Source: Marsupella aquatica
Taxonomy: Eukaryota; Plantae; Marchantiophyta
Direction: 5' to 3'
Length of the DNA: 64,000 nt
Assembly: GCA_973895155.1 (NCBI GenBank)
Contig: OZ316892.1
Location: 29,704,932 to 29,768,931 of the forward strand
This document shows positions 1-20,247 of the stretch, piece by piece. Position numbers and translations under genes: made by a program. Each line of letters starts with the position of its first letter. The stretch's first letter is position 1. Under the pieces are notes generated by a model. The model was not told the origin of the DNA, searched no databases, and was given only the letters and a program-made list of their open reading frames with translations.

Positions 1-188
1 CTATCGAGAATCAGTTCGAGAAAACTCAAATAAGCGTTAATTATATCATCGGTGAGCAACTCGCGCGGTCTCAGACACATCATATATTTCCTCTTGATCG
101 AGTGTTGTAAGAACTTGGTCAATAGCTCTTCCATATCCTTAGAAGGATCAAGGCATTGATCTATTCGACTAGCCAAATTTTCAAAAAA
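1..188 (-). pseudogene. Ulp1/peptidase C48-like exon (N-terminal part of catalytic domain)
   Basis: Manual translation FFENLASRIDQCLDPSKDMEELLTKFLQHSIKRKYMMCLRPRELLTDDIINAYLSFLELILD resembles the Ulp1 'L.P..WLND.IIN.Y..LL' motif. The catalytic triad would lie beyond the window start. Confidence 0.7.
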
Positions 189-1179
189 CTGCAAAAAATA
201 GAGATTTCAGTACGCCTTCAAATAACGTACTGAGGTTGTAGCCTAAGGGTTCTACCTCAGAAAACAGAAACAATAACAAATCAATAATAAAATAATGACG
301 TCTATAATAGAAACTTTAAGCTTATAGCTTGCAAATGACCTTTGGATTGGGTGGATCCGGCCTTTTCGTAGCTGATCTCTTGGGTGCCTCAATCGCAACA
401 ACATCCTTCAGCCCTCCTCGAGACCGCAGTGATCGCTCCACCGGACCAGTTTGCGAAGGTTAGAGCGATGAGGCAGGAAGACCTTCAAATGGTTGTGGCA
501 TTTGATTCAAATATTCCACAATCTGGGAATCCAATTCCAAAATATCCGGTGCCACAATTTCTGCGCGAGTGACCTCTGTAATATATCGGGGTCGAGACCA
601 CGAACCCGATCGCGTCAAGTCAGCTGTTAGTCTCTTAACGACTTGAGCCGAGTCTGGTGCCAAAGACGTTCTCAGGTCTTGCACTCGATTCTCGAAAAAG
701 CGAACATTATTGATGATTGTCTCCATTTTGGATGCAGTGGCAGTCTTCTCCTCGGTAATCAAAAGACCCTTCCAATATTGCAAAGTAAGAACTGTCTGGA
801 CTCGGAGCTGCTCTGGTGAATATTTATTCCAATCATCCAACGAGACCGTACTTAAGGGTGGATGGTTAAATTCAAACTCCGTGCGAAGAAAATAGTCTAA
901 TATTTTCTTCTTAACTGCAATTGAGGGTGAAGAAGGCTTCTTCAAATTCAGCCTTATTTTCGGTAGACGTTGTGCCTCAGGAATAAGCAAAAGATCCTTG
1001 GCCCTCTCGGCCTCCTTCCTCGCTGCCTCCAGTCTTGCGGAATTGACCTTTTTTGCCTCCAACTTCTTCGCCTCCACCCTCTCCGGTCTTGCGGTCTCGT
1101 CCGCCATCCTCTCGGCCAGCAGCCTCTCAGCCGCCACACTCTCCGCCTTGGCCCTATTTGCCTCTGTCACTAAAAGGAC

Positions 1180-1740
1180 TCTCGCAGCCTCCGCTTTCTC
1201 AGCCTGGGCTTTCTCAGCCTGGGCGTTCTTAGCCTCCGCTTTCTCAGCCTGGGCTTTCTCAGCCTGGGCTTTCTCAGCCTCCGCTTTCTCGGCCTCCGCT
1301 TTCTCCGCCTGGGCTTTCTCCGCAACCGCTTTCTCAGCCTGGGCTTTCTCAGCCTCCGCTTTCTCAGCCTGGGCTTTCTCAACCTCCGCTTTCTCCGCCT
1401 CCGCTTTCTCAGCCTCTGCTTTCTCAGCCTCGGCTTTCTTCTTCTTCTTCGCGGCAGTTGCTTTTCTAGCTACTGCCTTTTTCTTCTTAGCCTCCTTCTT
1501 TTGAAGCTCCTCTTGTCGGGATGCCTCCTCCTGCCGGGCCGCCTCCTTCTTTTGAAGCTTCTCTTGCCGGGCCGCCTCCTGCCGGGCCGCCTCCTCTCTG
1601 GCCTCCTCCTGCCGGGCCGCCTCCTTCTTTTGAAGCTCCTCTTGCCGGGCCGCCTCCTGCCGGGCCTCCTCCAGTCGGGCCTCCTCCTGCCGGGCCACCT
1701 CCTCTCTGGCCTCCTCCTGCCGGGCCGCCTCCTCTCGGTC
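1180..1740 (-). repeat. Coding tandem repeats: 15-bp unit (AEKAE/AEKAQ) array and EEAARQ-type array forming a charged helical linker
   Basis: Repeated gctttctcagcctcc/gctttctcagcctgg and gcctcctgccgggcc units inside ORF 460..1914. Confidence 0.9.
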
Positions 1741-2429
1741 CACCTCATGTTGAGGCTCCTGTGTGGCCTCTTCATCAGAGTCCTCAGCGTCCTCAGAACC
1801 CTCCATCTCCTCGTCCTCTTCATCAGCGTCCTCAGCGTCCTTCATCTCCTCTCCGTCACTCTCTTCATCTCCTCTATTGTCGGAATCTCCGACGTCGTTC
1901 TGCGTATTGGTCATCCACTCTGGATCTTGATCATTGACATCCCCATCCGCGTCACCTTCCGCGTCACCTTCCCCCTCACCATCCGCATTACCATTGCTCC
2001 CTGCATCCTCAACATTGAAGCCGCAGTCGACTTGATCTGAATAAAATCAGATCATTTGATAAGAATAACTCACGCGCATATTCGCGTGAAAAGAAATGTT
2101 ATGAATATCCACGCGCATGTTCGCGTGACGCAATAAAAAGTAAGAGGTTTCAAAAGTAACCTACTTTGGATTGGCCCACTAGGGTACTCCGTTGGTCGAA
2201 TGTACAATCGATCGGAATCTTCAGAGAGTGCATACTCTTGCAATAATTGATTACAAATATTATCAGGGATATGTTGTTCGTGGAGGACATCCAAAACATC
2301 AGCCCTGAGAGTAGTTACGGATGGACGGTACTTCATTAATTTATCTATACATTTTTCTATACTAGCCCGTACTGGGTCAATCAATGACAGCGTTGTATCA
2401 ATTGTCACCGTGGTGTGTTGCAAGAAACA

Positions 2430-3080
2430 AGACAACTCCCTATGCGTTGCCACAGGGCAATAATATTTTACATTGGATCCAGCATCCTGTAAAAAAAGCC
2501 AAAATTAGTTCACAATATTAATTGAGAATACAATAATCTAAATAATCTTAAAATCGAAACCCCAAAATATAAATCTCAAAACTTACCATTAAGCACTGGA
2601 TCAAGTTCGTTCCCTCACCGAAGCATATAGCCCATTCCCCACATTGGACGAATTGACTAACAATACTTTCAAAGAATGGAAGTATCTTTTCTGGGGAAGG
2701 TGTCGTGAACTCACCGCTCTCTTCAAAATTGGCTATCTTCTCAATCTGATATTTGGAGACCAATTGGAACTCGAGGGCTTGTGGATCGCCCATTGTGTTG
2801 AAGGCCAAGTTGTGAAAAGCGTAGGTTACAATAAGCTTCTTCTCCTTCGGCCGCTTCTGAATATAATGGCTATCGACAGCAACGTAGTGTGTGTACTTCC
2901 CTAATTCCCGTTTGATTAAGTAAGACTCAACTGGAGAGGCTACAATAATAACCACATGGTGTGGTTTTGCCCCTATCTCGCTAGTAGCACGAAATAACCC
3001 CTCATAGAATGAGCAATTTGGCGGACGCAAATTCCCATTGATGAGGGATCAAAATAAATCAAGCTTGCAAGGTTCTTGTC
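2430..3080 (-). pseudogene. Beta-class N6A/N4C DNA methyltransferase-like domain
   Basis: LASLIYFDPS then a 1-nt frameshift; restoring one base gives LIYFDPS(Y/F)NGNL, compare motif IV 'LIY.DPPYN'. Downstream EKILPFFESIVSQFVQCGEWAICFGEGTNLIQCLM|DAGSNVKYY parallels 'xKP..LL..LI......GD.VLDPF.GSGT...AA...GR..IG'. Motif order IV...X-I is the beta permutation. Motif I is degenerate. Confidence 0.55.
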
Positions 3081-3989
3081 TTCACGTATGATACAGTCTG
3101 CAAACCCAGCATTTTGTATATCCTTCAGGGATCGCAATTTCAGCCTCTCACCGACCGGCCGCACTAGTTGGTTTCCTTGACTATCAACTGATTTTTGTAT
3201 TCCTTCCACCAACTTGTAGAATATCGGGTCGATCTCCTTCAATAAATTATCATTACTAATATTTACATTTAAGCACTTCTTTAGATAACCACTCAACGCA
3301 TCTCTCAACTGCTTCCGCACCATCTTGTCGAGCTTAAAGCGATCAATCATTCCTTTGACCCGCAATTTCCGCGCTGAATCTGTTAGACTTTTCAGCTCCA
3401 TCCGGGTGGATGTATCCCCGTTGAGTTTACTCAATAATAAAATCTCAAACTCAACTTTTGTCTTCTTCTTTATGCAGAATTGCTCCAAACTCATGCTGGT
3501 CGTTGACAACACTGGAGCCTCAGAGGACTTCCTCGTCTTCCCAAATTTCACTTTGATGCTTCAGTTTTTGAGTATAGACAATCTTCCGCTCAACATATAT
3601 TCCGCTGCCTTTCGAAGAACCGAGTCTGAGCACCCTTGACAAGAACGAAACGTCTTCTTCAGAAGATGATAAGCACATGGATTATCCGCAATTTTGACGG
3701 CGTCCCTCTGTAAAATTCCGTTGTAAATTACAAGCTCTCCTGTCCTTGATAGTTCGTAGACCTCCATCCACTTCTTGAATGTTTCGTCCTCCATTGTAAA
3801 GAGAAACGGAGCCAATTCTCCAAATTTCATCATTTCGTTCTTCTCCATTTGAGCCCATGGGCAAACAAAACTTGTAGCTCTCATAAATACCTGAAAAACA
3901 ATGGAAACATGACAATTCTAAGCTTGACGCGACCGTTCGCGTGAAAAAAGTTTAAACGATAATGTGATCGAAGAGGGTTATTTATATAC

Positions 3990-4547
3990 CTCCCAATTTG
4001 GATGACGATAATGTGATCCAGGCCGCCCAAATGAGTTCCAGATATTACGACACTGTCGTACAATGGTAAGAAACTATCCTTCTTCCATTGATGTTTGATG
4101 ACAGTGGTTCAGAGCTTTCGATAATCCCATCAAATGAACATTATTGTCGTTGTTGAGCGTTGCCCAAAACATTACAACTTCTACAGTACCGCAAGCGTCT
4201 CGTACAACTTGGCTGACTTTATCGTCCTCTTTCAGCAATTTGTACGCCATTATTGTGTGCTGGCCTCCGAGTATCCAGAAATGACTGGTCATAATGTCCT
4301 CCTCCTTTGGCGATGAATCGTAGGGCACCCCATTGTAGTCGGGATCTCTGTTGGCCTCCAACTGAACCCACTTCACAGGGACTAAAAAGCAGCATCGCTT
4401 CTCGAACTTTATAGCCGAATGAGAGAGGAGTGAATTCTTTAGCCTATCTGTGTAATCCTGATTCCACTCTCGGCACTTGATGTGGTCCGGTGCAAGATGA
4501 CAATGTGATGTTTCAACCAAAAATGACTTGCTGTTTAATATATTCAC
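3990..4547 (-). pseudogene. ParB/Srx-like N-terminal domain
   Basis: CREWNQDYTDRLKNSLLSH...FWILGGQHTIMAYKLL...VEVVMFW...LSKALN resembles the ParB N-terminal pattern (R..d...v..L..Si ... iidGxHR..A ... v.v ... N). The arginine patch is degenerate (GGQHT). Confidence 0.55.
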
Positions 4548-5301
4548 AGCACTATATTCTTGAGGAAAGAATCGAACAGAGCCCCGACATTCGCTGAGGT
4601 AATTACTTTCGGAAGATTCTCCGCCGAGTATACTTCAACCTTGCTCACTGGCGGGGCCTTTCCTAAGCAAAATCCCTGGTTGAAAGGAACTCTCTGGAAC
4701 TCAAGTACGTCAATAATGTATTGACAAATCAAATCTCCCGTTGATCCCTCTGGATCGGAAGGATATCCCACACTAGTAACCTTTTCCAAGGCGTGCCTTG
4801 CACCTAGAAGATCATCGATTCTGGGCTGATTGAAGGTTACATATTGCGTTCGATCCAAATAAATGCTTATTTTGTCTTCCTGCTGGTCGTCGCTGACTAG
4901 CAGAACCAATCCCTCTGTACACTCTTTAACTTTCATGTTCTTCTCAAAGAAACACCCAAGAATTTTTTATCTCTCCAAAACTGTAGCTTTATCATTTTTG
5001 CCACCACAAGACGGATAGTCCCATTGCGAACGACTATTCCAAAATTGGATATCTCAGTCGATTCAAAGAGATGGATACTCTTTGTCTCCGTTGTTCTCTC
5101 TCTGATTGACTTTCCTCGATATGCAAGTATGGATGTCTCCACGGGAGTCATTTTTGTCTTGGTTTTCTTACGAGAAGCAGCTTTAGACAAGTCTCTTTTC
5201 CGCTTTGAGGTTCCGGTAGGATCCATTCTGAAACAGACAAATATTGAAAGTTAAACGTTTATTATAAAATACTAACACGCGCATGGTTGCGTCGTGCCAA
5301 A

Positions 5302-5835
5302 TTACATTTTAGGAATATTTATCCTGACCCAATCTTCTCGCTCTGAATCTTCATCTAACCAAAACCAAAGGTTCCTAAACGTGTCAAGTTCAGATCCTTC
5401 AAATCCACCCACAATGTCCAGCGGCGGGAGAGTTCTGATGGATTCTGTAAATCTTAATGCTACACTCCGTGAAGTCAAATGCCTTCGAAGCGATTCATAT
5501 CCTGGTCTATCAGTGAAGTCGTAAGCAACCAAGGTGACCGTCGCCCAAGTACTACTATAAGTAACTATGTGGCACCACTTCTTACTGACTGTTTGAATGG
5601 CGATCAAGTCCATGACCCAATTTTTAATCGTAGTATCCGACAAATTCCCAAGACAGTGGAAAAACTCTTTGACTAATGGCCAAATATATTTCTCGACAAT
5701 ATCGTCCAGAAGACCGGGTATTAGGTCTTTAGCTTGACTCCATATCATGTTTCGGTTGATAACCTTTGCACGTGCAATGCGCTCCATCATCATTTGACGA
5801 TGAGATTTTTGATTCATGTCAAAGGACTGCAGCAT
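5302..5835 (-). CDS. F-box-like protein 1 (split F-box), TE cargo
   Basis: LIPGLLDDIVEKYIWPLV ... IQTVSKKWCHIV; intronless and open; likely start is ATG 5817 after a putative acceptor. Confidence 0.65.
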   Translation of the reverse strand: MLQSFDMNQKSHRQMMMERIARAKVINRNMIWSQAKDLIPGLLDDIVEKYIWPLVKEFFHCLGNLSDTTIKNWVMDLIAIQTVSKKWCHIVTYSSTWATVTLVAYDFTDRPGYESLRRHLTSRSVALRFTESIRTLPPLDIVGGFEGSELDTFRNLWFWLDEDSEREDWVRINIPKM

Positions 5836-5869
5836 AATATGGAAACGATTAAGAACAAGAACCTATCCA

Positions 5870-6439
5870 TTAAGAACTGGGACCACCAAGATTCTGAGAA
5901 AATCTACCAAACCTTTCAATTAGGACATCTCGTTCTTCCTCATCTAAATTGTTATATTTGTTCGTAAACAATGCAATTTTGTCAGAAGTAGTAGTCCCAA
6001 GAACATATATTTTTGGAAGCATAGAAATATCCTGTCGAATAACTCGACAGACTGAGTCAAACTCCAACTCGTCAATTTTGGGTATGTCGTAAAGAGCATC
6101 ATTTGCGACATTGATAATCCGGTTTGCTTGTTTGAGGATAGCCCATAATCTTGTATTTGTAACTAAAAAGTTCCACTTCTTGCTATAAGCTCCAAGCCGA
6201 ATAAGGTCTCGGACCCTATTGATAACCAAATTGTTATCGAGGTGTCGATATCCACGCAATCTTTCAATTAAAATAAAGTGTTCGTAGAGTATTGGCCAAA
6301 TGTTTGAAATGACCAAAATATCTGGTATTCCTCCAATGAGACTAGAGGAGGATTTATCCAGTGTATCTCATATTGTTTTTTGTTTCCTTTCATGAGATGA
6401 AAGTCCGAAATCTCGACCCTCATTCAAAAGTTGGCTCAT
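5870..6439 (-). pseudogene. F-box-like protein 2, TE cargo, one premature TGA
   Basis: ATG 6439 is in frame with ORF 5870..6316, with TGA at 6368-6370; LIGGIPDILVISNIWPIL ... LGAYSKKWNFLV. Confidence 0.6.
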
Positions 6440-6504
6440 CCTGCTTTTATCATATCACAAAACATTGTTAGAAGACATACGACGTGCTTGGTCACGTAAG
6501 TTAA

Positions 6505-7056
6505 CTAGAATTCCTTAAAAGCGTAGATGTCACCCTCAAGGTATCCAACTTCGTGGCATCTGACTGTAAATTTCCATTTTTCAAGAGGGTGAAGAGCATC
6601 GTAAGTCTTCGTGAAGAGTTCCCTAAGATCTCTGGACATTGACCCCATGAATTTAATTCTTGTGTATCTCTGGAAGAAATTTTGAACTGTCGATGAGAGA
6701 GACTCATTTCTGATCGGTTTAGTAGGATTTCGTGGGAAAGCCAAATCTAATAAACTCAACTTGATTACACCCAGAAGATAGGTATTCCCAACAAGGTGGC
6801 GCCATCTGCGACACACCGAAGATAGTCCTACAAACTCATCCAATTCCTTTATTGAGAAATTTCCTGCATTAGCCGAGGAATTAAAAGTCTCCTTGATCCG
6901 AGGCCATATCAATTCCGCGACAATGAAATCTGGAAGTCCAGGTAGTAGTGTTTCAACAAATACAGAATATCCCGCCAGTAGACCATCTTGGCTTCTATCC
7001 AAAACGTCAAATATTGGGCATAGATATCTGAAGCTCTCCAGACCAGGTTTGCCCAT
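6505..7056 (-). CDS. F-box-like protein 3 (split F-box), TE cargo
   Basis: LLPGLPDFIVAELIWPRI ... LSSVCRRWRHLV; intronless open 183-aa ORF. Confidence 0.7.
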   Translation of the reverse strand: MGKPGLESFRYLCPIFDVLDRSQDGLLAGYSVFVETLLPGLPDFIVAELIWPRIKETFNSSANAGNFSIKELDEFVGLSSVCRRWRHLVGNTYLLGVIKLSLLDLAFPRNPTKPIRNESLSSTVQNFFQRYTRIKFMGSMSRDLRELFTKTYDALHPLEKWKFTVRCHEVGYLEGDIYAFKEF

Positions 7057-7194
7057 GACTCTTTTCAGCCAAATGATATATCCCAGAGATTATTTTCACG
7101 CGACTGGTCGCGTCTACAAATCAGAATGTATAAACAATTCTTTGAGAGACTGATTTTTTTGGGTCACAACGTGACAAATCATAAATGTTGCTTC

Positions 7195-7835
7195 GTCCTC
7201 TAACAGAACTAGTCAATGAGAGAGCTACCTCAAACGCGACTGGTCGCGTCAACTGATCCTAAAAGGAACCTTACCTCCTCTAACAGAACCAATCAATGAG
7301 AGCTACCTCAGACGCGACTGGTCGCGTCAACTACTCCTAAATGAAACCTTACCTCCTCTAACAGAACCAGTCAATGAGAGATCTACCTCAGACGCGACTA
7401 GTCGCGTCAACTGGTCCTAAAAGGAACCTTACCTCCTCTAACAGAACCAGTCAATGAGAGAGCTACCTCAGACGCGATTGGTCACGTCAACTGAACCTAA
7501 ACAACTATATCCACTGAACCTTCCCTGTGGAGATTTGGATATGGTACGCGCTCAGTAAATCTATCATGTTTCCTTCTGACACGCGACCGGTCGCGTCAAC
7601 TGGTCCTAAAAGGAACCTTACCTCCTCTAACAGAACCAGTCAATGAGAGAGCTACCTGACGCGACTGGTCGCGTCAACTGAACCTAAACAACTATATCCA
7701 CTGAACCTTCCTTGTGGAGATTTGGATATGGTATGCGCTTAGTAAATCTATCCAGTTTCCTTCTCACACGCGACTGGTCGCGTCAACTAGTCCTAAAAGG
7801 AACCTCACAATATTTTCACGCGACTGGTCGCGGCA
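7195..7835. repeat. Tandem array of ~79-bp units (plus two longer variant units), each with the GACGCGACTGGTCGCGTC palindrome
   Basis: Unit cctcctctaacagaaccagtcaatgagagagctacctcagacgcgactggtcgcgtcaactggtcctaaaaggaacctta; palindromes at 7233, 7311, 7391, 7471, 7580, 7658, 7767, 7817. Confidence 0.92.
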
Positions 7836-8917
7836 ACAGCTCAAACAAATTTTGGACAATAGGATAATACAATGATACAACTGTGATTACTGACCCGTAC
7901 GGACAAGGAAATCCGAGTAAGCATGATTTCATTCATTTGTATTCATTCATGAACTTTACAATAATTCAGATGTTTGAGCTCTGTCATTGTGAAACTATTA
8001 TATATCATAAGTTTAGAGAATGATCCAGCTAAGATGATTCAATTTAGCAGTCTACTGGTTGTATTCGTCAATTAAAGGATTCAGTGTAATGAGATTCACA
8101 TAACATGAGAGTTTATATGATTAAATTCACAGCGTGCAAGTTTGTAATGACTTACTTAAGACGATTCAGGTTGTATTTTAATTAGTGAGTTTGTATGATT
8201 AACACATATTTGAGTTTCCAAACAAACCGCATTATGAAAACTCAGCTTAACAATCAAGAGAAATTTTAGCAAACCACAATCAACACCAGCAGAAAATGTA
8301 GAAATTGCACCTGAATTCTAAAAAATTGATGTAATCGTCTGAGAGATTGACGTCCAAGCACTTGAAGACCTTGCTGCGGCATTCCAGAAAGTAAATATAA
8401 GATTGAAGATATTAATATGCTAAGCAACAACAACACAGCTTCTATACTTCTATACATAGAGCTTCGCTGCCACCAATTGAATAACATGTGCTTAATGCTA
8501 AGGAACTCATTATGTCGAGTTAAAAAGACTCTTTCAGAAGTACAATCAAAGCTGTGGATAGGCAAACTGAGCATGAATAAAAGCGCACTAAACTTGAAGA
8601 TTCAAAGAGGTGAAACAAACCTGAATGCTGAATGGAAGGAGCTGAAACAAGCTGCCAAAAAGTAGTTCGAGCTGCTGAAACACGTTGATCGAGCTGATAT
8701 GAGCTTAAAATTGGCTGACACGAGCTAATACAAGCACTCCCAAAAAACTAGCTGCAATGAACTAGCAAACTAGAAGTGAATACGAGCTGTAAATGCGAGC
8801 TGTAACGCACCAACGAGCTCCTGGTCGAAATGATCAACAACTACTAAGAGTTGCAATGCGCCGACAAGCACCTGACCACAACGAACGAGCTGCAACGACA
8901 AAAATGAAATCCAAGGC

Positions 8918-9130
8918 AGGAGCGAGAGCGAGAGCGAGAACGACGAGAGCGAGAGCGACGAGAGCGAGAGCGATGAGAGTGAGAGCGAGAGTGATGAGAG
9001 CGAGAGCGACGAGAGCAGGCGTGCGAAAGTCTAGGGAGCGAGAAACAACAACAATGAACAGTGAACTCGAGACCGTGGGCGCCGACACTAAGGAAGGACT
9101 AATTAGGGTATTGTTTTAGCATAACCCTAA
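8918..9130 (-). promoter_or_regulatory. Putative promoter/5' leader for the minus-strand cargo unit: (GAGAGC)n tract (CT-rich on minus strand) and telo-box-like motifs
   Basis: (gagagc/gacgagagc)n at 8920-9016; ttagggt at ~9103 and aaccctaa at ~9123. CT-rich 5' UTRs and telo-boxes are typical of plant promoters; function is inferred. Confidence 0.35.
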
Positions 9131-10439
9131 TAACAGCCTAGCGACAGAAAGGTTCCAGATGATCTCCGTACACTCCACCATCGACTGAACAAACTATGCA
9201 ATCGTGAAAAAAAGATTACCGGATTCCTTTTGATTTGCCGTACTAAAGGAGATTTCTATTTGATCGCCAATTTGCAATTTAAACTGGTAATTATGCAACT
9301 GCAAAAGATTGTTAGTGGGGACCCCCGGATCCGGATCCGTATCTTCACTATATCTGCCAATTCAAATCCAAAATGTAAACGAACGACAACTTTCTCACGA
9401 TCGTTCCATCACGTAGTGGAGGCGAACTTCAAAATCATTACATTTTGGTAGTGGAGACCGTCGGATCCGGATCCGTACTCCACTCTCTATCTTGCCAATT
9501 CAAACCCATACTCTAAACAACATAGAACGATTCTCACGGTCGGGGAGAACCGATATTCAAAATCAATCCTGTACAATGATTCTCACGACTGGAGACTCAA
9601 CCAATTTTCAAAATCAAAATCGAGTCCAGATGAACACATCCTCCATGGAGTCAATAGACTAATCTCATTGCTCACGGATCATTCTTCATTTTCAGTTTCT
9701 CCTGACCAGGATACTAGCTGGGCTCTCAGCGGAGGCTGATCCAAGGCACATTTGAGGTAGAGCAAATTGGATCATTCGACTATTCCAGTCGGAGGCGGAG
9801 CTCATTCAAGCAACGCTGGCGCAGTTCTTGTTGTATCACCTTCAATCTTGGGGAGAGCACATCCGATCAAGCGGGAGAGTTGCAACAAAGCGAGACGATA
9901 AACATTTAGAACCTCCATAGTCTGCCTCGTTCATCAAAGCATTCTAGTGGACCAAAAAAGAGCGGCTATTTTGAAATCACAGTCTGGTCGAGGATTTTGA
10001 TCTTGATACGATCAACAAGTTGTCATTCTCTGGTGGTGGGATTCGATCACGATACTCAAGGAAATTGGAGTTCAAAGAAGGAGGCTTAGTTGGCTGGGAC
10101 GAGGAGGCTACGCTGGAAGGAAGAGGCTTGGCTGAGAGGAGGGTTTCCGCCAACATCGGAGGGTTGCCGCCAACATTGCTGAGACCACACGCAACTGAAT
10201 AACTTGTAAGTATCAATCAGCATTAATTCCGCAATAAATGAGGAGAGTAGTTGCCTTAAATCACGCATTCAATGCATGAATTGAGTCAATGAAGTTATGG
10301 TCCAATTTCTCACTCTGATTTTGATCAATCCATGTTTCAAGTCCAATACAGAAGCAATGTATCAGAAGTACTAGTAGAGGATCCGAATGAATTCTCTAGT
10401 CTAAAATTGTATGGCGTTCAAGTATAGTTATCCGTACGT

Positions 10440-11660
10440 TTTGCTATTGTTTATTGTAGTCGACGGCCTAGCAAAACAAAATATAATCGAGGTCCATTTT
10501 TCAGATCAAACTGATCTCAACTTGTTAGTAGGATGACCTGATTTTTTGGATACACATGTAGTTCATCACGCGCACAGTCGCGTGAACCAATTTATCTCGT
10601 GTCTTTTGATATTGTTTATTGTAGTCAACAGCCTAGCAAATTCTCCAGCAATCTATTTTAAAACCAACGTCTTTGTTTCATCACGCGCACGGTCGCGTTA
10701 ATATTTTAGAGGTCAGCGAAAGCTTTGCACTCTTACACGTAATCGCCCTTTATTTCTCAGATCCTCCTGATCTCAACTTGTTAGTAGGATGACCTGTTTT
10801 TTGGTTACACATGTAGTTTGTCACGCGCACAGTCGCGTGAACCAATTTATCTCGTATCTTTTGATATTGTTTATTGTAGTCGACAGCCTAGCGAATTGGC
10901 CAGCAATCTATTTTAAAACCAACGTCTTTGTTTCATCACGCGCACGGTCGCGTTAATGTTTTAGAGGTCAGCGAAAGCTTTGCACTTTTAGACGTAATCG
11001 CCCTTTATTTCTCAGATCTTCCTGATCTCAACTTGTTAGTAGGATGACCTGTTTTTTGGTTACACATGTAGTTTATCACGCGCACAGTCGCGTGAACCAA
11101 TTTATCTCGTGTCTTTTGATATTGTTTATTGTAGTTGACAGCCTATCGAATTGGCCAGCAATCTATTTTGAAACCGAGTTCTGTGTTTCATCACGCGACC
11201 GGTCGCATTAATGTTTTAGAGGTTAGCGAAAGCTCTGCACTCTTAGACGTAATCGCCCTTTATTTCTCAGATCTTCCTGATCTCAACTTGTTAGTAGGAT
11301 GACCTGTTTTTTTGGTTACACATGTAGTTCATCACGCGCACAGTCGCATGAACCAATTTATCTTGATATTGTTTATTGTAGTCGACTGCCTAGCGAATTG
11401 GCCAGAAATATATTTTAAAACCGAGGTCTTCGTTTCATCACGCGCCCGGTCGCGTTAATATTTTAGAGGTCAGCGAAAGCTCTGCACTCTTAGACGTAAT
11501 CGCCCTTTATTTCTCAGATCTGTCTGATCTCAACTTGTTAGTAGGATGATCTATTTTTGGTTACACATGTAGTTCATCACGCGCACAGTCGTGTGAACCA
11601 ATTTATCTCAAGTCTTTTTGATATTGTTTATTGTAGTCGACAGCCTAGCGAATTGTCAGT
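10440..11660. repeat. Tandem array of ~255-bp units (~4.8 copies), two CACGCG-N6-CGCGT palindromes per unit
   Basis: gatctcaacttgttagtaggatgac recurs at ~10513, 10769, 11024, 11279 and 11527. Confidence 0.93.
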
Positions 11661-11901
11661 GAGAGGAATCTCAATTTTTCCTTGATTGCAAAAATGGTTA
11701 CATCGATCCCGAAGGACTTCGAATGTGGAATCCATATCCACTAGCACTATCCAGGAATTTAACTGACCTGGTCTTTCGAACACTATTTTCCACGGGACGA
11801 AATTAAGCTACACACTATCTATAACAAGTTCTAACTTGAACTACTCTTGAATCTGTAGTTCTAATCTTTGACTACTCAAAATATTATTGACTTTGATCGA
11901 G

Positions 11902-12444
11902 TCAGTCATTCCAAGATGAAGGCATCCACTCATCGGTGTCTGGTGTGGATTCCCTTGAATCCAGAAATTCTTCCTTTGCCCAAGTCCTAACGTCCATAGA
12001 TTTTCTCGGCTTGCTCTTTCTGTAATACAAATCAGAATCTTCGTTCATCTCTAATTGCCTTTTCTTCGGTGCGTCCACTTTCTTGGCCTCCTTCTTGACT
12101 GTCTTAGCATCTGTTGCTGCTTCCCCCGAAATGGATTGGACGCATGCTCTGGCCTTCAACTTCTCCCCCCTCAAAACGGATTCCATGAGGGCTTTGCCCT
12201 TTAACTTCTCCCTTGATGCCATCTTTGTAGTCATCTCTGTCGGATTGGTCTCCATCTAATCTTCCATCGACAAATGTGGCGAACAATATCGTCTCTCACA
12301 AAACATTTGACCCAATTTAGTCACCGTAAACATTATATTACATCGCTGACACATTCTGTAAGGATTACCATGAATTCGATACGTCGAACCTTCTGAATCG
12401 TCCGTCGGACCATCCTCATTCTTTGAGCTCAGCGGAGTAGTCAT
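11902..12444 (-). pseudogene. Small cargo gene with Cys-rich (CxxC...Cx4C) putative Zn finger and basic/acidic tail; one in-frame TAG
   Basis: ORFs 12256..12444 and 11902..12255 abut in the same frame (TAG ATG); YRMCQRCNIMF...FCERRYC. Confidence 0.45.
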
Positions 12445-12921
12445 CGCCCTTCAAACAAGAGATGCGGACCGAGACTAAGAATTGGAAATGAGAGAGCTGA
12501 TGTGCGAATAGATTATCCAATAGCCAAAAAGTGGAATGCGTGGGGGAATGAGCAATAGGGATCATCTCAATGCTTTATACTGTTTAGTCTCCACTAGTCA
12601 TTGTCCATAGTGGTTTCTAGAAGAGAGTGCGCATTTGACTGGCGCGTATTAGAATTGGCGGGAAGTTCAGTTGTCCTCTAATTATGGCTTTAATTTCACG
12701 TTTGGCGACCGCCCCGGGAATACTGATTGCTAGTGAACTACTGAGATTTCTTATGAGGGTCAGTAGTTACTGACTGTCCGGTGTCCACTCATTGGTAAAC
12801 TGGTACTGTCCACTCATTTTTTCTGAGTGGAGTTGAAATGATTGTTCGTAATTGATTGTAGTCGTTCTCATTCACTTGAAATGACTGACAGACCATGCAT
12901 AATCTGTTACCGGTATGTGTG

Positions 12922-13230
12922 ATGCCTTTAGATCCGTAATTGTATCTTCCTATCTTGCGCGCAATCGTATCTTACTTATGAAGTACCAAGTATGAGCTAG
13001 AGTTTGGGCCTAGCCTTCTAGCTTCTACATCGTAGACCCTGTTATCCCTACACCCTCTGACTAAGGTCACGCGACATGCCTTTAGATCCGTAATTGTATC
13101 TTCCTGTCTCACGCGCAATCGTATCTTACTTATGAAGTACCAAGTACGAGCTAGAGTTTGGGCCTAGCCTTCTAGCTTCTACGTTGTAGACCCTGTTATC
13201 CCTACACCCTCTGACTAAGGTCACGCGACT
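12922..13230. repeat. 154-bp direct tandem duplication upstream of the transposase, flanked by a second dispersed duplicate (~12765-12920 vs ~13345-13470)
   Basis: atgcctttagatccgtaattgtatcttcc at 12922 and 13076. Confidence 0.88.
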
Positions 13231-13625
13231 AGTCGCATGCAGGGCAGTGCATTGACTATATTCTGCCTACTTATTGACGGTCGTGACAGGACAATGCAGT
13301 TCACGGACATTTTACTGGCGCTTATTAGCACTACTGTCCTCAGCAGTTACTGACTGTCCACTCATTTGTTCTGAGTGGATGTGAAATGATTGATCGTAAT
13401 CGATTGTGGTCATTCTCATTCATTTGAAATGACTGACGGACCATGCATAGTCTGTTGCCGGTATGTGGTACCTCTAGGGTCACGCGACCAGTCGCGTGCA
13501 ACGCAATGCATTGACTACATTCTGCTTATTGACCGACGTGACAGGACAGTGCAATGAAATTGACGGACGTGACAGGACTGTACGCTTACAGTGATATTCT
13601 CTGATGTGCAGGATCATAATTATTA

Positions 13626-16600
13626 TGGTGACATCGATAGTATGGATCAGGGAAGGTGGACAAGTTATTATAGGCATACGTGAGAAACAGGTTGGAAAAG
13701 GTCGCGTGATAAGTCTTGATCCTTCCAGGGTTTGTCACAATGTTCCTCTTGGGGCGGACAGAGTTCTTCTTCTATTGGAGGAAGTTTTTGACGAGACCAT
13801 TCTATGCGAAGATGGCAAACTTTTGAAGGACATGATTGGGGGTTACCTTGTATGGGAAAGGAATCAGCTTTTTTGAGCTCCCATAGAATCGGAGGATGTG
13901 TTTGGCACTGTTGGTGATGATCAAGATCCAGTCAATCAAAATTCTGATGGGAACAACCATAATGAGAGTCGGTCTGGTGTGGAAGTAGTTTTACCAAAGG
14001 CCTTGTGGATGGGCATGCCTGTAAAGGTGGTGGATGAGAACAAGTTGATTTTTGCAGTGGCAACTATACATGTTCTAGATCCTATAGTGAAGCTTGGGGA
14101 TATATGTCACCATTGGGAATACACATGTGGGAATTCTGATCAACAATTTTGTCAAGGGAGCTACCATAGATCATCTGAAGCATAGAGATTGCTTAAAAGC
14201 TTGGTCGATGGACCAACTCATTGCCAAGGATGGCAACTTGTTGTCTTTCCACAACATCAGGCAAGCTGTGGGAGGGAACACATCTCCAACAAGTGGCAAG
14301 CGGTCTTACGTCCATAAAAGTAGGAAAGAAAGAGTCCATCTTCCCAGACATCTAGAAGAGACACATCTTTGGCACGTCAAGATGTGTTGTTGATAAACAC
14401 TAAGGACTGTTGTAGTGAACATTGTTGCCAATATTTGGACCGCAACTTGGCTATGGCAATTAGGCAAAAGTGGTGGTCAAAATCTTTTGCGGAGCGCAAG
14501 GAGGAGGAAATCAAGGCTATTAAAAATACAATACACTTGGGTACTGGAGAAAGGATTCTAGCAGTGGAAGGCAAAGTATTGTGCTTGGAGGCATGGAGAA
14601 TCATTCATTCAAGAGGAAAGACTCAATTTTATGCCTTGAAGAAGACTGTGATGGCTGGAATGAACATAGGTACCCATGGTAATGCTGGAAAAGGCGTATG
14701 TCCGAGAAAGTATCTCAAGCATTCATGTCAATGAAAGAGATTATTGAGGAGGCAGCTGATCATCATCCAGCCAAGTTGCATGAGAACCATGGCAGATAAT
14801 ACAAGGATGGTTTTGAGGGAATTGCCAACAAATCTTACTTGGGAGAATATTAGAAATAGGGTTAATATTGTCAACCAGGAGGCTGGTCTTCCTCCAATTT
14901 CCCAACCCACCTTGAGTCATCTACATCAGATGTATTTCAGGGAGTTCTCACGTCACAAAAAGGGCAACAACTTTTCAAAGTGTACAACTTGTAGTGAGTT
15001 GCTTCAACAAAAAGCAAACCTTACAGGAGCTAAGGAAGAGTTAGAGGGCCTAAGGCGTGACGAGGAGGAACATCACCAAGACCACACACAGCAAAGAATG
15101 TGCTATCATACTTGGAGATATGAGTCCATCCATCGTCCAAAGGAAGTGTTATGCCTTATTCATGATAAGATGGATCATTCAAAGACAGCTCTCCCAAGAA
15201 TGCCCTTCAATCCTAAGCATGTGGATGGTGCCCAAAAGTTCCCAATTACTGTCACTGGTATCCTTACTCATGGTCATGGTCCCAAGGCCATAGCCCAATA
15301 TCATGTTGGAGTGTGGCCAGGTGATGTCAACATCACTATTGGGTCAATTGATTCAATACTAAGGATGTTGGAAAACCCAAATCCAATGATCAAATCACTT
15401 GTGGAGGGGCCAGACTCGACAAGTCTTTTTAAAGACCTCCTTTTTGGGAGAGCAGATATCTTGGAGGCAAGTGTCCTTAGAGCATTTGAGGATGACATTG
15501 CCTACATCTCAAGCCTAGGTACTTTACTCACAATCCTTTAATTTATTATTATTTAATAATATAAGCTCACACACACTGACACTCTACTTTGTGTAGTTGT
15601 TGCTCCTCCTAGCCAAGGTTTCATTAATAGGGTTTAAACCCTAAACCCTAAATTGGGGTTTAGGGTCTGACTAGGGTTTTATTTAAAAGCATTCTGAGAT
15701 TGTTACATTGTGATGCAACACCTGAGGCACCAAAGTTCAGGCCCCTTCCACGAGTATTGAAGCTACAACTGGATAATTGTGCCTCAGACAACAAGAACAG
15801 ATATATGATGGCTTATTTGTCATTGTTGACGGCAAGGGAAGTGTTTGAAGAGGTTCATCTTGGTTTTATGGTGGTTGGGCATACTCATGAGGACGTTGAC
15901 GGTATGTTCGGGCATTTTTCAGAGTCTATGATGCATAACCCCACATACTCATTGCCTGAGTTAATGTCCTTGTTCATGAGAGCAAGGACACCCAATGCAG
16001 TCCCACATTTTCTATAGGAGGTCCCAGATTTCAAAAACTACTTAGCTCCATTCATGTTGAAGGGCCCTGAGGCATTGGTGGGGCATTTAAAACCCAGACT
16101 GTTTAGGTTCTATGTTCGTCATGATAGTATGCCATGCTTCCAATACAAAATGAAGTCAACTGATTAGGGATGGTTACCCAAGGAAGGTATTGAAATGTGG
16201 TCATGGAAAGATGACAAAAGTCCTCACATCCCAATTGGGGTGCCCAAACGGCTACCAATGATGGAGTTGAAAATGCTTCCTGAAGTGCTGACAGGGTTGA
16301 AGAAGCATGTGTCATTCTTTGAGTTTATTCTAAAGCGAACAAAAGAGGAAGAACCAAAGCGACGTTGGACAACTATCATCAATTATTGGAATGACATTGT
16401 AGATACTCTACAGGGTGAGCAGGTGCAATATGAACCTGAAGGTGCACACAACTTGGAATACGGGTTTTGGCCTTTATCAATATGGAGAGAGCACGTTCCA
16501 CCAGAATATCGAAATGTGGCATGTGAGTTGGAGGCAACAGTGGATTATGTGGGACCAGCAAAAGATAAACCTCCTGAGAGTTTTAACCCTAGGGTTGATG

Positions 16601-17015
16601 TTGTGAAGGGCTGTTATGTGTTGGTACGGCCGGACGACTCAGACCTGATGTTTATCCCGTCCATATGGGGTTAGTTGTTACAGATGTGGTAGAAGGACCA
16701 GTGAATGAACAAAACCTTCTTACTCATGTATGTGGCGTTGAGTGGTTTAGACCATTTATGGCAAAGAAGCAATGTGGTCAATCAGATTGGCAGCCAAGAG
16801 AGCGGTGGGCAGATTCTTGGGATAAGAAATGAGAACGTGATCCAACTCCAATATACAAGGAAGCTGAGACAATAGATGTTTCCTCTGCCTTGTGGTGTTT
16901 CAAAGCACGCCAAGGACCAGTGACAGGGCTGGTAGGAATTCCAAAGAATGTTGTTGTCAAGGCAAGAGACTATCTCTTGACATGCATAGCAAGTGACAAA
17001 TCCTAGACAGTAATG
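13626..17015 (+). pseudogene. DUF7869-type / Sola-like DDD transposase with N-terminal Tnp1/En-Spm-like (DUF8039-like) domains
   Basis: Core motifs LIHDKMDHSK, LQLDNCASDNKNRYMMAYLSLL and FMVVGHTHEDVDGMF; FSKCTTC...H...H Zn motif; CCSEHCC and LCLEAW; N-terminal VGKGRVISLDP..CHNVPLG...GGYLVW. Several frameshifts and in-frame stops (13874 TGA, 16015 TAG). Intron region ~15519-15717. Confidence 0.8.
15628..15680. repeat. Short telomere-like TTTAGGG/CCCTAAA cluster in both orientations inside a transposase intron
   Basis: tagggtttaaaccctaaaccctaaattggggtttagggtctgactagggtttt. Confidence 0.75.
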
Positions 17016-17097
17016 AAGCATGTAGTTTAGCATACAGTTTAAAAGGCAACTCAGAATAGTAGTAGGCAGAGAACTCAAGTTTAGACAAGTCTTATCG

Positions 17098-17556
17098 TTG
17101 GTTAGTTTATTTAAGATATAATATTAGTTAGTGGGGCCTTAGTTTGGTGATATTAAGGCATGATATTATTGACATTCAAATGAATGTCCAGTAGACATTG
17201 TAATATACAACAATCCTATTAATAAATAATAATTATAGTTACACCTTCAAGTGAACTCAACTTTCAATGATTTTCTGATTTTATATGGTTCCATGCCTGA
17301 TTGAGTCAAAGCAATAGAAACTAACTAATTAAAGGGTGATACTATGATTGTAGGTCACGCACCCTGGTGCGTGTCAATCTTTTTTTGCATTCAACCCTAT
17401 AGTAATTAAATAGACAAGTTAGTTAGTTGGTTAGTTTATTTAAGATATAATATTAGTTAGACAGTGGGGCCTTAGTTTGGTGATATTAAGGCATGATATT
17501 ATTGACATTCAAATGAATGTCCAGTAGACATTGTAATATACAACAATCCTATTAAT
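17098..17556. repeat. ~127-bp direct repeat pair downstream of the transposase
   Basis: ttggttagtttatttaagatataatattagtta...caacaatcctattaat at ~17098-17224 and ~17427-17556. Confidence 0.88.
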
Positions 17557-18072
17557 TGTTGTAAAGGGTGGTCAATCTTTTTTGTATTCAACCCTATAGT
17601 AATTAAATAGACAATTGAAACAATGAATGACAGTTTAATTAAGGATTTGTGCATGGATCAAGAGGTACTTGATGTCATTTAGTGATGCATTGTTATAAAG
17701 ATCTTGCAACAAAACATTTGAAGTTTTTGACTATCCCACCAAATGTTAAAGAGGTTGATCATTCATTAACTTATAATATTTAGATAAAATTGGAATTAAT
17801 CTAATACTTCAGTATTCCTTAAATTGGGGTTATAGGTTTCATTTTCGTTGAAGTCTCTCAATGATGCGTTTGCATCACCTCAATGTTTCTTACATTGAGA
17901 CTAAAATTTGTAATTAAGAAACTGACCTCTGGTTAAGAGACTGACCTCTGGACCAGTTTCTTACTCTTGACTCCATGGCTTTCCTCGAGAAAATCAAAGG
18001 TCAAAAGAGGAGACAACCATGATTGTGCTGGGAGCCCACCTTTAGGGGTGTATGTAACTGCACATCAAAATG

Positions 18073-18273
18073 TGACATATAGGGTGGCTGACCTCCCTCC
18101 ATCCTCCATAGCATGATAAACCCCTTTATTTTCTTTAAATCAATGAGTGCCCACCATATATTAACACATTTTGACATATAGGGTGTCTGACCTCCCTCCA
18201 TCCTCCATAGCATGATAAACCCCTTTATTTTCTTTAAATCAATGAGTGCCCACCATATATTAACACATTTTGA
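18073..18273. repeat. ~99-bp tandem duplication within a ~240-bp insertion in the RLK remnant
   Basis: tgacatatagggt...ttaacacattt occurs twice; flanks align with 38020-38045. Confidence 0.85.
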
Positions 18274-18374
18274 TGTGTGATTGACTCACGTTCATAACTA
18301 TGGAGCATGCGAGTATGGACCAATCTTCAAAGTGAAAAATTTGTTCCAAGTAAGAAGAATAGAAAATCAATATA

Positions 18375-20247
18375 CAGTGTCTAAGTGCAAGCTCCCTACA
18401 AGGCGCTCTCGGGAAGGCACTCCAAACTTGCACTTATCCACTTGATGTAATATGTGATAAGTGCAATGGGATATCCTTTATGCACTTGTCCAGATGTGCA
18501 TGTTGCACTGTAAAATAAGGGCATGTTTAAAGCTTACTCACTTCTTTGATGTGTTGTGAGGTCATACACATTGGATTCCTCATACCCCAAATTTTCATAT
18601 TGCACAATTCATCTGGATAAGTGCATGGATAAGTGCATGAAACTGCTGTATGTAATTATCCATTGCAGTTATTAAGGAATGCTTCTGGCTCATGCATTAT
18701 TGTAACTCATAGATGCATGATCATCGTTTAGATGAAAATGCACTTGCGTATTCGTCTTTTAGTGACACTCACATACAATGCATTTTTTTATTATTGGCTG
18801 AACAAAGTTCAGCAGTTGTGATGGGGCCAGAAACGCCCCATGATGTGTCTGTTTGCAATACTTGGGTACAATTCTTTGTCCACTTGACATGTACACTTGT
18901 TCTAACTAGGCCCTACAGTATTGTCATGATGGCTTATTGACGAGAGGAAAGTACTTTCCTGTTAGTATTTTCCAATGTAAAGTTCAGCTATTGTGACTAA
19001 ATCTCTTTGGTCAAGGCATGGTTTTAATTTTCAATTGTGACCTTGGAAGGCTGTCGTCTTTGTCTTTCCATTTAAAAAAATAATTTAGACCCAAATATAT
19101 GCATCTTTATGAAAATGTCATTGCAGAGTGTAGGACTCTAACACTACAGTAGGCTTTTCAATCCCAAGGGATAACCGCCACCACTCTGCCACACAATGAT
19201 GATGCGCATTATGTCCCTGATATTATATTACATTATAAGTATTTATGACCATGGCCTCTCTTTCTCAGTCTCCCTTGTTCACCATTCAAAACTTTATAAT
19301 CAATTGCATTACTTCATAATAAACGATTCTTAATAAGCTAAATATGATAACATTGTTCTGATAATAGGATGCCCTTACATTACCAAAGGGTCCTCTAACT
19401 AATTGAGTGAACATACTTATATATGGGCATGTGTAATAGAATATTAAATTCACTTCTAGGAGTGAGTCACATGTGTAGCATTTAATGGTGTCCTGTAATT
19501 TAGTGAACATTGACCTGAAATGGTTACAGCCAGTTCCCTATGCTGGAATTAAAAAACATTCTAACTGCCACTAGTTGCATTTGAACCCCACTTTTGGGGA
19601 AGGATATATGTTACAAGGCTTTGGGAAGGATGTGTGTTAAGGCTGCTGGTGGATGTGTGTTAAGTTTCAAGTGTCGCTGGAGAAGTCTGAACCCCACTTT
19701 TGGGGGGATGTGTTAAAAGGGATATGAAGCAAACAATATTTGTACCCAACACTTCTGTCACCCCACTCTCACTATCTACAACCAACCCAACCCATGGCCT
19801 GTTGTATGATGATGGTGGTAGTTTCCACTTATTTATCTTTGTTCTGTGGGTAGCAAACCTGCACCTATGGGGCTATGGGCAGCCACAACTCGCACAACGA
19901 ACTGCATTCTGTAATGCAGGGGGTCTCAAAATTAGGGCCAGGTCATCCTGCCACAGAATGACCCTCATGTCCGTGAGGGTGACTGCGGGCTCATTTCACA
20001 GGCTTGAAATTTTTTTGGTTTTAACTTTTTGACGCACTGGGATACCAGTGCTCTGCTCTCCTGTCAAAAAACCACAGGGTGGCATGTGTGCCCGTCAAAA
20101 AACCCCACGGTGATAGTGTGTAGACCTGCCCTGGGGGCTGCCGCACGCCTTTATGGCCAAGTCCGCCTGAACCTAACTCAGACTGCCCGGAAAGAAGCCA
20201 CTGCCTATATTTGAGTGCCGCAAACAATGAGTCAGGTGAGTCCCCTG
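18375..20247. mobile_element. Probable non-autonomous DNA-TE-derived insertion(s)
   Basis: Absent from the other module copies. The left part has multiple GGATAAGTGCA/TGCACTTATCC motifs in both orientations (18430-18640). CAGGGG...CCCCTG imperfect inverted ends at 19917/20247. No TSD found. Confidence 0.35.

Follow-up and report, generated by a model that had tools for sequence, protein, structure and literature searches.

Three diverged F-box-like genes as probable accessory genes of a giant Sola-type transposon in Marsupella aquatica

Parasite F-box effectors, such as polerovirus P0, are established. The three genes described here resemble them in that each encodes an odd F-box-like protein of a parasite that could turn the SCF ligase on its host, but the parasite in this case is a transposon, and no sequence or fold link to P0 was found, with no match in a viral structure library at E up to 0.001. 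Their carrier resembles giant transposons of algae. Sola1-1_Ec32 of Ectocarpus is a giant Sola element of 21.5 kb whose ParB-like accessory gene and transposase lie on opposite strands; the former includes an N4C/N6A methyltransferase domain, through which the element is proposed to mark its own DNA (PMC12477816). The layout matches that of the Marsupella element, to which three F-box-like genes and arrays of CGCG palindromes are added; the term 'F-box' is absent from the accessible text and five supplements of that article. The Plavaka giants of Bostrychia (17-19 kb) have three accessory genes, one of them ParB-like and tied to tandem repeats. However, their transposase is of the EnSpm/Plavaka type, their accessory products are a methylase-SET protein, a ParB-oxygenase and an unknown, and the accessible text contains no mention of an F-box (10.1101/2025.02.11.637652).

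Two further systems share single traits with this locus. VANDAL elements have accessory genes beyond the transposase, in some families with a captured SUMO-protease (Ulp1) domain (PMC5735166, PMC13317346), and in the VANDAL/VANC system a short motif accumulates in introns, between genes and in tandem repeats (PMC5735166), a layout like that of the palindrome described below. VANDAL elements are Mutator-like, and their motif is A/T-rich and non-palindromic, with tested binding and demethylation (PMC5735166), whereas the element here has a DUF7869 transposase and a CG-rich palindrome known from sequence alone; no VANC homologue was seen in it. F-box sequence is likewise carried by the telomeric retroelements of Drosophila, there as 140-235 bp fragments that are 76-95% identical to a host gene and are read as piRNA sources (PMC13534243); the genes here, in contrast, are whole and deeply diverged. 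A 2026 review of plant gene capture has no occurrence of 'F-box' in its accessible text (PMC13317346). As far as we searched, the carrier type (in algae), F-box fragments (in fly retroelements) and parasite F-box effectors are already known, and no DNA transposon has been reported to carry whole F-box-like genes as standing accessories, although subscription papers or Repbase could hold such a report.

The window, that is, the whole stretch of 64,000 nucleotides analysed, opens inside a multi-copy element at positions 1-18282; its right end is at 18282, its left end lies beyond the window, and its length exceeds 18 kb. At approximately 13604-16990 on the plus strand lies a DUF7869 transposase (107.4 bits, E 9e-31, cut-off 26), a domain that we take as the mark of Sola transposases; in this copy it has stops and frame shifts. 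Telomere-like TTTAGGG/CCCTAAA pieces were seen in a likely intron of this gene (15620-15680), and similar pieces lie downstream of the family gene in one metagenome contig (L002). Sola elements have been reported from moss and are rare in flowering plants (PMC10741241). The flank of the element contains receptor-kinase and U-box pieces, which, with this distribution of Sola, point to a land plant as the probable host. At 21200-58100 a host segment, again with kinase and U-box pieces, is repeated in three nearly identical copies spaced 11-19 kb apart.

The initial annotation, which was made from the sequence of the window, had described the three genes as cargo of a transposable element, and both the contig depth and the sharp element end at 18282 bear this out. 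When contigs from public sequencing runs were placed on positions 1-20000, three of the four runs gave high depth in every bin to about 18.3 kb (bins to 18676), and beyond the element end the depth dropped 20- to 100-fold. Loose contig ends gathered at 18282 (113, 55 and 86 in three runs), with no comparable cluster inside the element among the listed ends (24 of 1405). In one run (X1), single contigs reached ~23 times the flank-contig depth over the gene nearest to the transposase (g3, see below) and 33-34 times over the transposase itself, which gives a rough copy estimate; the flank contig had no differences from the window in 1748 bases. No run contig spanned both the gene trio and the transposase. 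Pieces of the trio were also present in further public runs under two other organism labels (22 of 30 bins in X5 and 19 of 30 in X6). At 18282 the loose ends of three runs share ~11 further letters before the sequence becomes A/T-rich; the agreement is low (0.43-0.46). Other copies thus seem to run ~11 bases further, and this copy may lack its very end. The target duplication reported for Sola1 is a 4-bp AWWT (PMC3845634). In the region 18225-18282, 47 contigs of X1 also diverge before 18225, which may reflect the other inverted repeat or a non-autonomous family.

The three genes occupy 5302-7056 of the minus strand in a head-to-tail row, in the order g3 (7056-6505; 183 aa), g2 (6439-5870; 189 codons) and g1 (5835-5302; 177 aa). 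They had been annotated as intronless, tandem and split in their motif. Across all six frames of the 64 kb window there are exactly three occurrences of the pattern G[LI]xDxxVxxxIWP, one in each gene, so three tandem split-motif genes are real; the absence of introns is deduced from open frames that match their relatives along the full length. Two of the three genes are damaged in this copy. Only g3 is an open frame with an intact motif; g2 is broken by an in-frame stop at 6368-6370, and in g1 the motif proline has become a leucine. The true start of g1 may be at ~5790: the protein is 41% identical to one relative (P0001) in an alignment that starts at residue 16. The segment of g2 ahead of the stop aligns with relatives from residue 5 on.

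The three proteins are mutually 24-32% identical, and their pairwise local scores (z 16-17) were reached by none of 1000 shuffles in all three pairs. At the DNA level no similarity among the genes is left (best E 0.11). From the isoleucine of IWP to the tryptophan of the second motif there are 36, 42 and 35 residues in the trio; in canonical F-boxes this distance is ~19 residues (Skp2). The wide spacing that had been noted is therefore real, but the insertion, put at about 20-30 residues, amounts to 16-23 residues beyond the canonical distance. Similarly, the second motif ends in LV as described in the other genes but in IV in g1. The C-termini had been called unrelated-looking. This does not stand: weak homology was found in two of the three pairs (score attained in 3 of 1000 shuffles for g1-g2 and in 8 of 1000 for g2-g3), and the C-termini also align across the wider family, although the similarity between g1 and g3 in this part is not significant (118 of 1000).

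Searching 1.84 billion representatives with a profile of the three genes (E up to 0.001) retrieved 42 matches. Five of these (P0009, P0030, P0031, P0033 and P0035) are long repeat proteins and were dropped as spurious, and 37 were kept as true outside relatives. A word-index search found no match with the three-gene alignment and three with a 40-row alignment; the latter added two further family members, and a metagenome contig added one. Ten matches were looked up, of which eight belong to the family; every one derives from a Logan or ENA assembly, and none is named. The wide motif spacing is a trait of the family (median 36; 34-44 in 39 of 40 rows). The mean share of the commonest residue is 0.64 in the first motif half and 0.45 in the second, compared with 0.28 in the insert, 0.25 in the N-terminal part and 0.32 in the C-terminal part. 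Over the 40 rows, the tryptophan of the second half is present in all 40 and that of IWP in 39, followed by the isoleucine (36), the motif proline (34) and the leucine (32). One member (P0040) has none of the residues that normally separate IW from the second motif and may be a deletion derivative.

The assignment to the F-box falls short of the Pfam cut-offs gene by gene and is consistent across the family. In the Pfam check the trio scored 13.7-16.5 bits against cut-offs of 20.5 and 24.3 (g3, 15.8 bits against 20.5), and the matches cover the second half of the models only (residues 75-97 in g1, 76-100 in g2 and 75-91 in g3); the first motif halves alone gave a Pfam match in none of the three. 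Among the 43 family members, however, the F-box was the only recurring Pfam family, matched at E up to 1 in 22 members and as F-box-like in 15, with the next Pfam family in two. A single member (P0010) lies above the cut-off, at 20.8 against 20.5. The three best neighbours of g1 in the Atlas (score 0.94) carry an F-box-like label on 11-23% of their members; they are small fungal clusters in which this is a minority label. Skp2 is the top match of the three-gene profile among PDB sequences, at E 0.79. A match of the C-terminal part to TFAM (E 0.016) was taken as a helix look-alike and set aside. Since both the score and the spacing of 35-42 residues depart from a compact motif of ~45 residues, we file the family as F-box-like rather than F-box. 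It shares with F-box proteins (PF00646, PF12937; Skp2) both signature halves and three helices in the same, here predicted, order, but differs from them by the 16-23 extra residues between the halves, by scores under the Pfam cut-offs and by having no LRR, WD40, kelch or FBA domain.

AlphaFold models of g1 (pLDDT 90.4) and g3 (pLDDT 87.6) are both all-helical, with an identical order of helices: an N-terminal helix is followed by a loop containing L-I-P-G-L-P, by a long helix that spans IWP and by another helix; a helix starting at K/R-K/R-W then leads into four or five C-terminal helices. Because of this order in both models, the insert likely lengthens the first two F-box helices into a hairpin and does not break the motif. 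Fold comparisons do not exclude an F-box: Foldseek against the PDB gave no matches at E up to 0.001 for either model (for g1, the F-box chain of Cdc4 ranked 15th, at E 3.3), a viral structure library likewise gave none at E up to 0.001, and a VIA fold search with g3 reached a best Z of 3.5, with none at or above 5.

The trio products could instead be descendants of F-box proteins that no longer bind SKP1 and whose helical fold does another job, such as pairing with the ParB-like protein described below. Scores under the Pfam cut-offs and a first half that is not recognised alone fit this alternative, as does the insert, found at 16-23 residues in nearly all members; judging from the models, the lengthened hairpin could block SKP1. 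In canonical F-boxes, however, the hydrophobic and proline positions of the motif face SKP1, and the most conserved columns of the family are these very positions. We consider a loss of SKP1 binding rather unlikely, and lean, on the evidence of sequence conservation, towards products that bind SKP1.

Strong divergence around a kept motif had been taken to imply long selection, and the phylogeny agrees: with the conservation of the family, it points to old paralogues maintained in parallel. g3 groups with five outside relatives (100/100), g2 with its own outside relatives (99/97) and g1 with its own (100/97; weaker, 86/72, in another tree). A single clade of g1, g2 and g3 was rejected (p-AU 2e-5) in a test on 33 of the 43 rows, the short and long-branch rows being left out. 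Since each paralogue groups with its own outside relatives, the triplication is older than the present element family, and each branch has been kept. With regard to earlier origins, a search with the motif pattern returned three short metagenome contigs, no viral match and one prokaryotic match, the last being an off-frame chance hit; a viral or bacterial origin thus finds no support from this one pattern. PHROGs gave no match.

These data also bear on whether the proteins are SCF decoys, which would bind SKP1, recruit no substrate and so blunt host ligases acting against the element. They are short and have no known substrate-binding domain, and the motif halves are their best conserved regions, with the C-terminal part scoring low (0.32), as a decoy would allow. 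Yet the C-terminal part of ~90 residues is kept, can be aligned family-wide and folds confidently in the models, and three parallel paralogue lineages fit different partners better than one decoy role. We find decoys quite unlikely and prefer adaptors.

The state of this copy needs to be separated from that of the family. Compared with the bulk of copies in X1, this copy differs mainly in the direction of methyl-cytosine loss (192 vs 36). At position 6368, in the g2 stop, other copies differ from it in 6308.7 of 6308.7 depth in X4 and in 5002.5 of 5050.4 in X3, and at 5708, the g1 motif proline, all or nearly all other depth differs. From 40 listed differences out of 235, 32 substitutions were classified, 24 of them non-synonymous and eight synonymous, as expected without selection, and they are mostly private to this copy. 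This copy decays neutrally, and function is therefore to be judged on the family. Four of the five listed indels inside the three frames are multiples of three, and the fifth falls in the last two codons. Rare derivatives without the whole trio were also seen, as two joints with short anchors at about single-copy depth.

Neutral decay of this copy is one point in favour of passive cargo, meaning either that host genes were captured a single time and are carried to no purpose or that a family of host genes has come to lie in a transposon at this locus alone; the mostly undescribed genomic settings of the relatives and the common occurrence of functionless gene capture (PMC13317346) are others. 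Captured passengers, however, usually stay near a host gene and are fragmentary, whereas the trio consists of whole frames that are 24-32% identical to each other. No named host gene appeared among the eight family members looked up, and the trio has an upstream motif of its own and indels that keep the frame. Passive cargo is very unlikely in our judgement, and we regard the trio as functional accessory genes with high confidence.

Directly downstream of g1, on the same strand and opposite to the transposase, lies a gene in pieces (2551-5226, minus strand) whose nearest Atlas clusters are DUF3723 (score 0.96), a domain that is presumably ParB-like; profile searches gave no HMM hit for this gene. 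A relative of 418 aa (P0046) joins its pieces at 5190-3987 into one gene, and a predicted intron of 99 nt (3989-3891) contains a palindrome. At its 3' end, also in pieces, the stretch 2551-3048 resembles a methyltransferase by eye, with no methyltransferase hit in Pfam, PDB sequences, PADLOC or NCBIfam; if this end is real, plants too would have a self-marking accessory gene like that of the algal giant transposons. Two other frames on the minus strand lie inside the element: a low-complexity, coiled-coil-like one of 484 aa (460-1914) with 15-nt repeats, acidic and then E/A/K-rich, for which no family match was found, and a charged one of 117 aa (11902-12255).

The palindrome ACGCG-N6-CGCGT occurs in 24 copies (one mismatch allowed; 0.1 expected), all within 2072-13482 and none elsewhere in the 64 kb window. 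One copy (7098-7113) is located 42 bp before the g3 start, a worn copy with two mismatches (6482-6497) 43 bp before the g2 start, and another (5277-5292) precedes the ParB-like start by 51 bp; at the corresponding place ahead of g1 there is none. A palindrome before three of these four genes has p ~1.5e-5, for an interval chosen after seeing the data. The sites are spread over spacers, the predicted intron, a place before the transposase, and two tandem arrays, one upstream of the trio at 7196-7830 (80- and 187-nt units, eight copies) and one at 10496-11655 (255-nt repeat, nine copies). A tract of GAGCGA repeats lies at 8793-9119.

With 56 CG against 48 GC, the trio has retained its CpG, whereas the transposase, with 28 CG against 94 GC, has lost it (p 2e-6). 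Relative to expectation it stands at 0.84 in the palindrome-bearing arm (motifs and arrays excluded), 0.25 in the transposase and 0.61 in the host flank. At codon junctions, 16 of 27 expected CpGs were seen in the trio, an intermediate value, as compared with 42 of 48 in the ParB-like gene and seven of 24 in the transposase. The CpG richness of the arm may reflect its source and not protection. Ahead of a distant member of the family, on metagenome contig L003, stand four CGCG palindromes that differ in sequence from the one here (L003 30-301; nine matches, against at most five in 100 shuffles), as if each element family had its own palindrome. The other two of the three metagenome contigs have no CGCG palindromes, one of them having tandem repeats instead; all three are too short to show a transposase.

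Taken together, we favour a reading in which the trio belongs to the accessory genes of a giant Sola-type transposon, is old and conserved, and encodes products that likely bind SKP1 as adaptors, a combined claim that we hold to be evenly poised. The lengthened F-box would dock on host SKP1 by its conserved motif face, and proteins that bind SKP1 would act as SCF ubiquitin-ligase adaptors for the element. The helical C-terminal part of ~90 residues would bring a substrate to the SCF, and the three paralogues may persist because they grip different substrates. The palindrome is a candidate binding site of an element protein, the product of the ParB-like gene being the candidate, and such binding could keep the arm expressed and low in CG methylation.

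What the adaptors might target can at present be given only in tentative terms. That the target is a host silencing or chromatin factor is a guess, and an unlikely one; an element protein, or no target at all as in a decoy, is in either case less likely still. Under the second of these options, a sub-case of the adaptor reading, the trio would degrade the element's own transposase or ParB-like protein, as a brake or an antidote. F-box antidotes are known in nematode selfish toxin-antidote elements, and the ParB-like gene follows the trio directly on the same strand, its start preceded by the same palindrome. The element has no identified toxin-like gene, however, and derivatives without the trio exist, so we assign this form of self-control a low probability. 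Adaptors acting on host proteins would fit a counter-silencing arm, in which the ParB-like protein protects the palindromes and the hairpin-lengthened F-box proteins send silencing or chromatin proteins to the proteasome. This complete scheme is speculative and itself unlikely; if it is true, a transposon does what plant viruses do with F-box suppressors, in three parallel lineages across species.

To our knowledge, few transposon anti-silencing proteins are known. In the accessible parts of the papers cited above, such proteins work either on the DNA of the element or by way of small RNAs. If a transposon has long kept ubiquitin-ligase adaptors, a route of anti-silencing at the protein level would be added to these, and the substrates of the adaptors would name host factors that are important for silencing in this plant lineage. 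Even otherwise, the locus provides an F-box-like family that is invisible to Pfam and has a defined insert, together with a plant example of the giant, ParB-carrying elements of the algal type.
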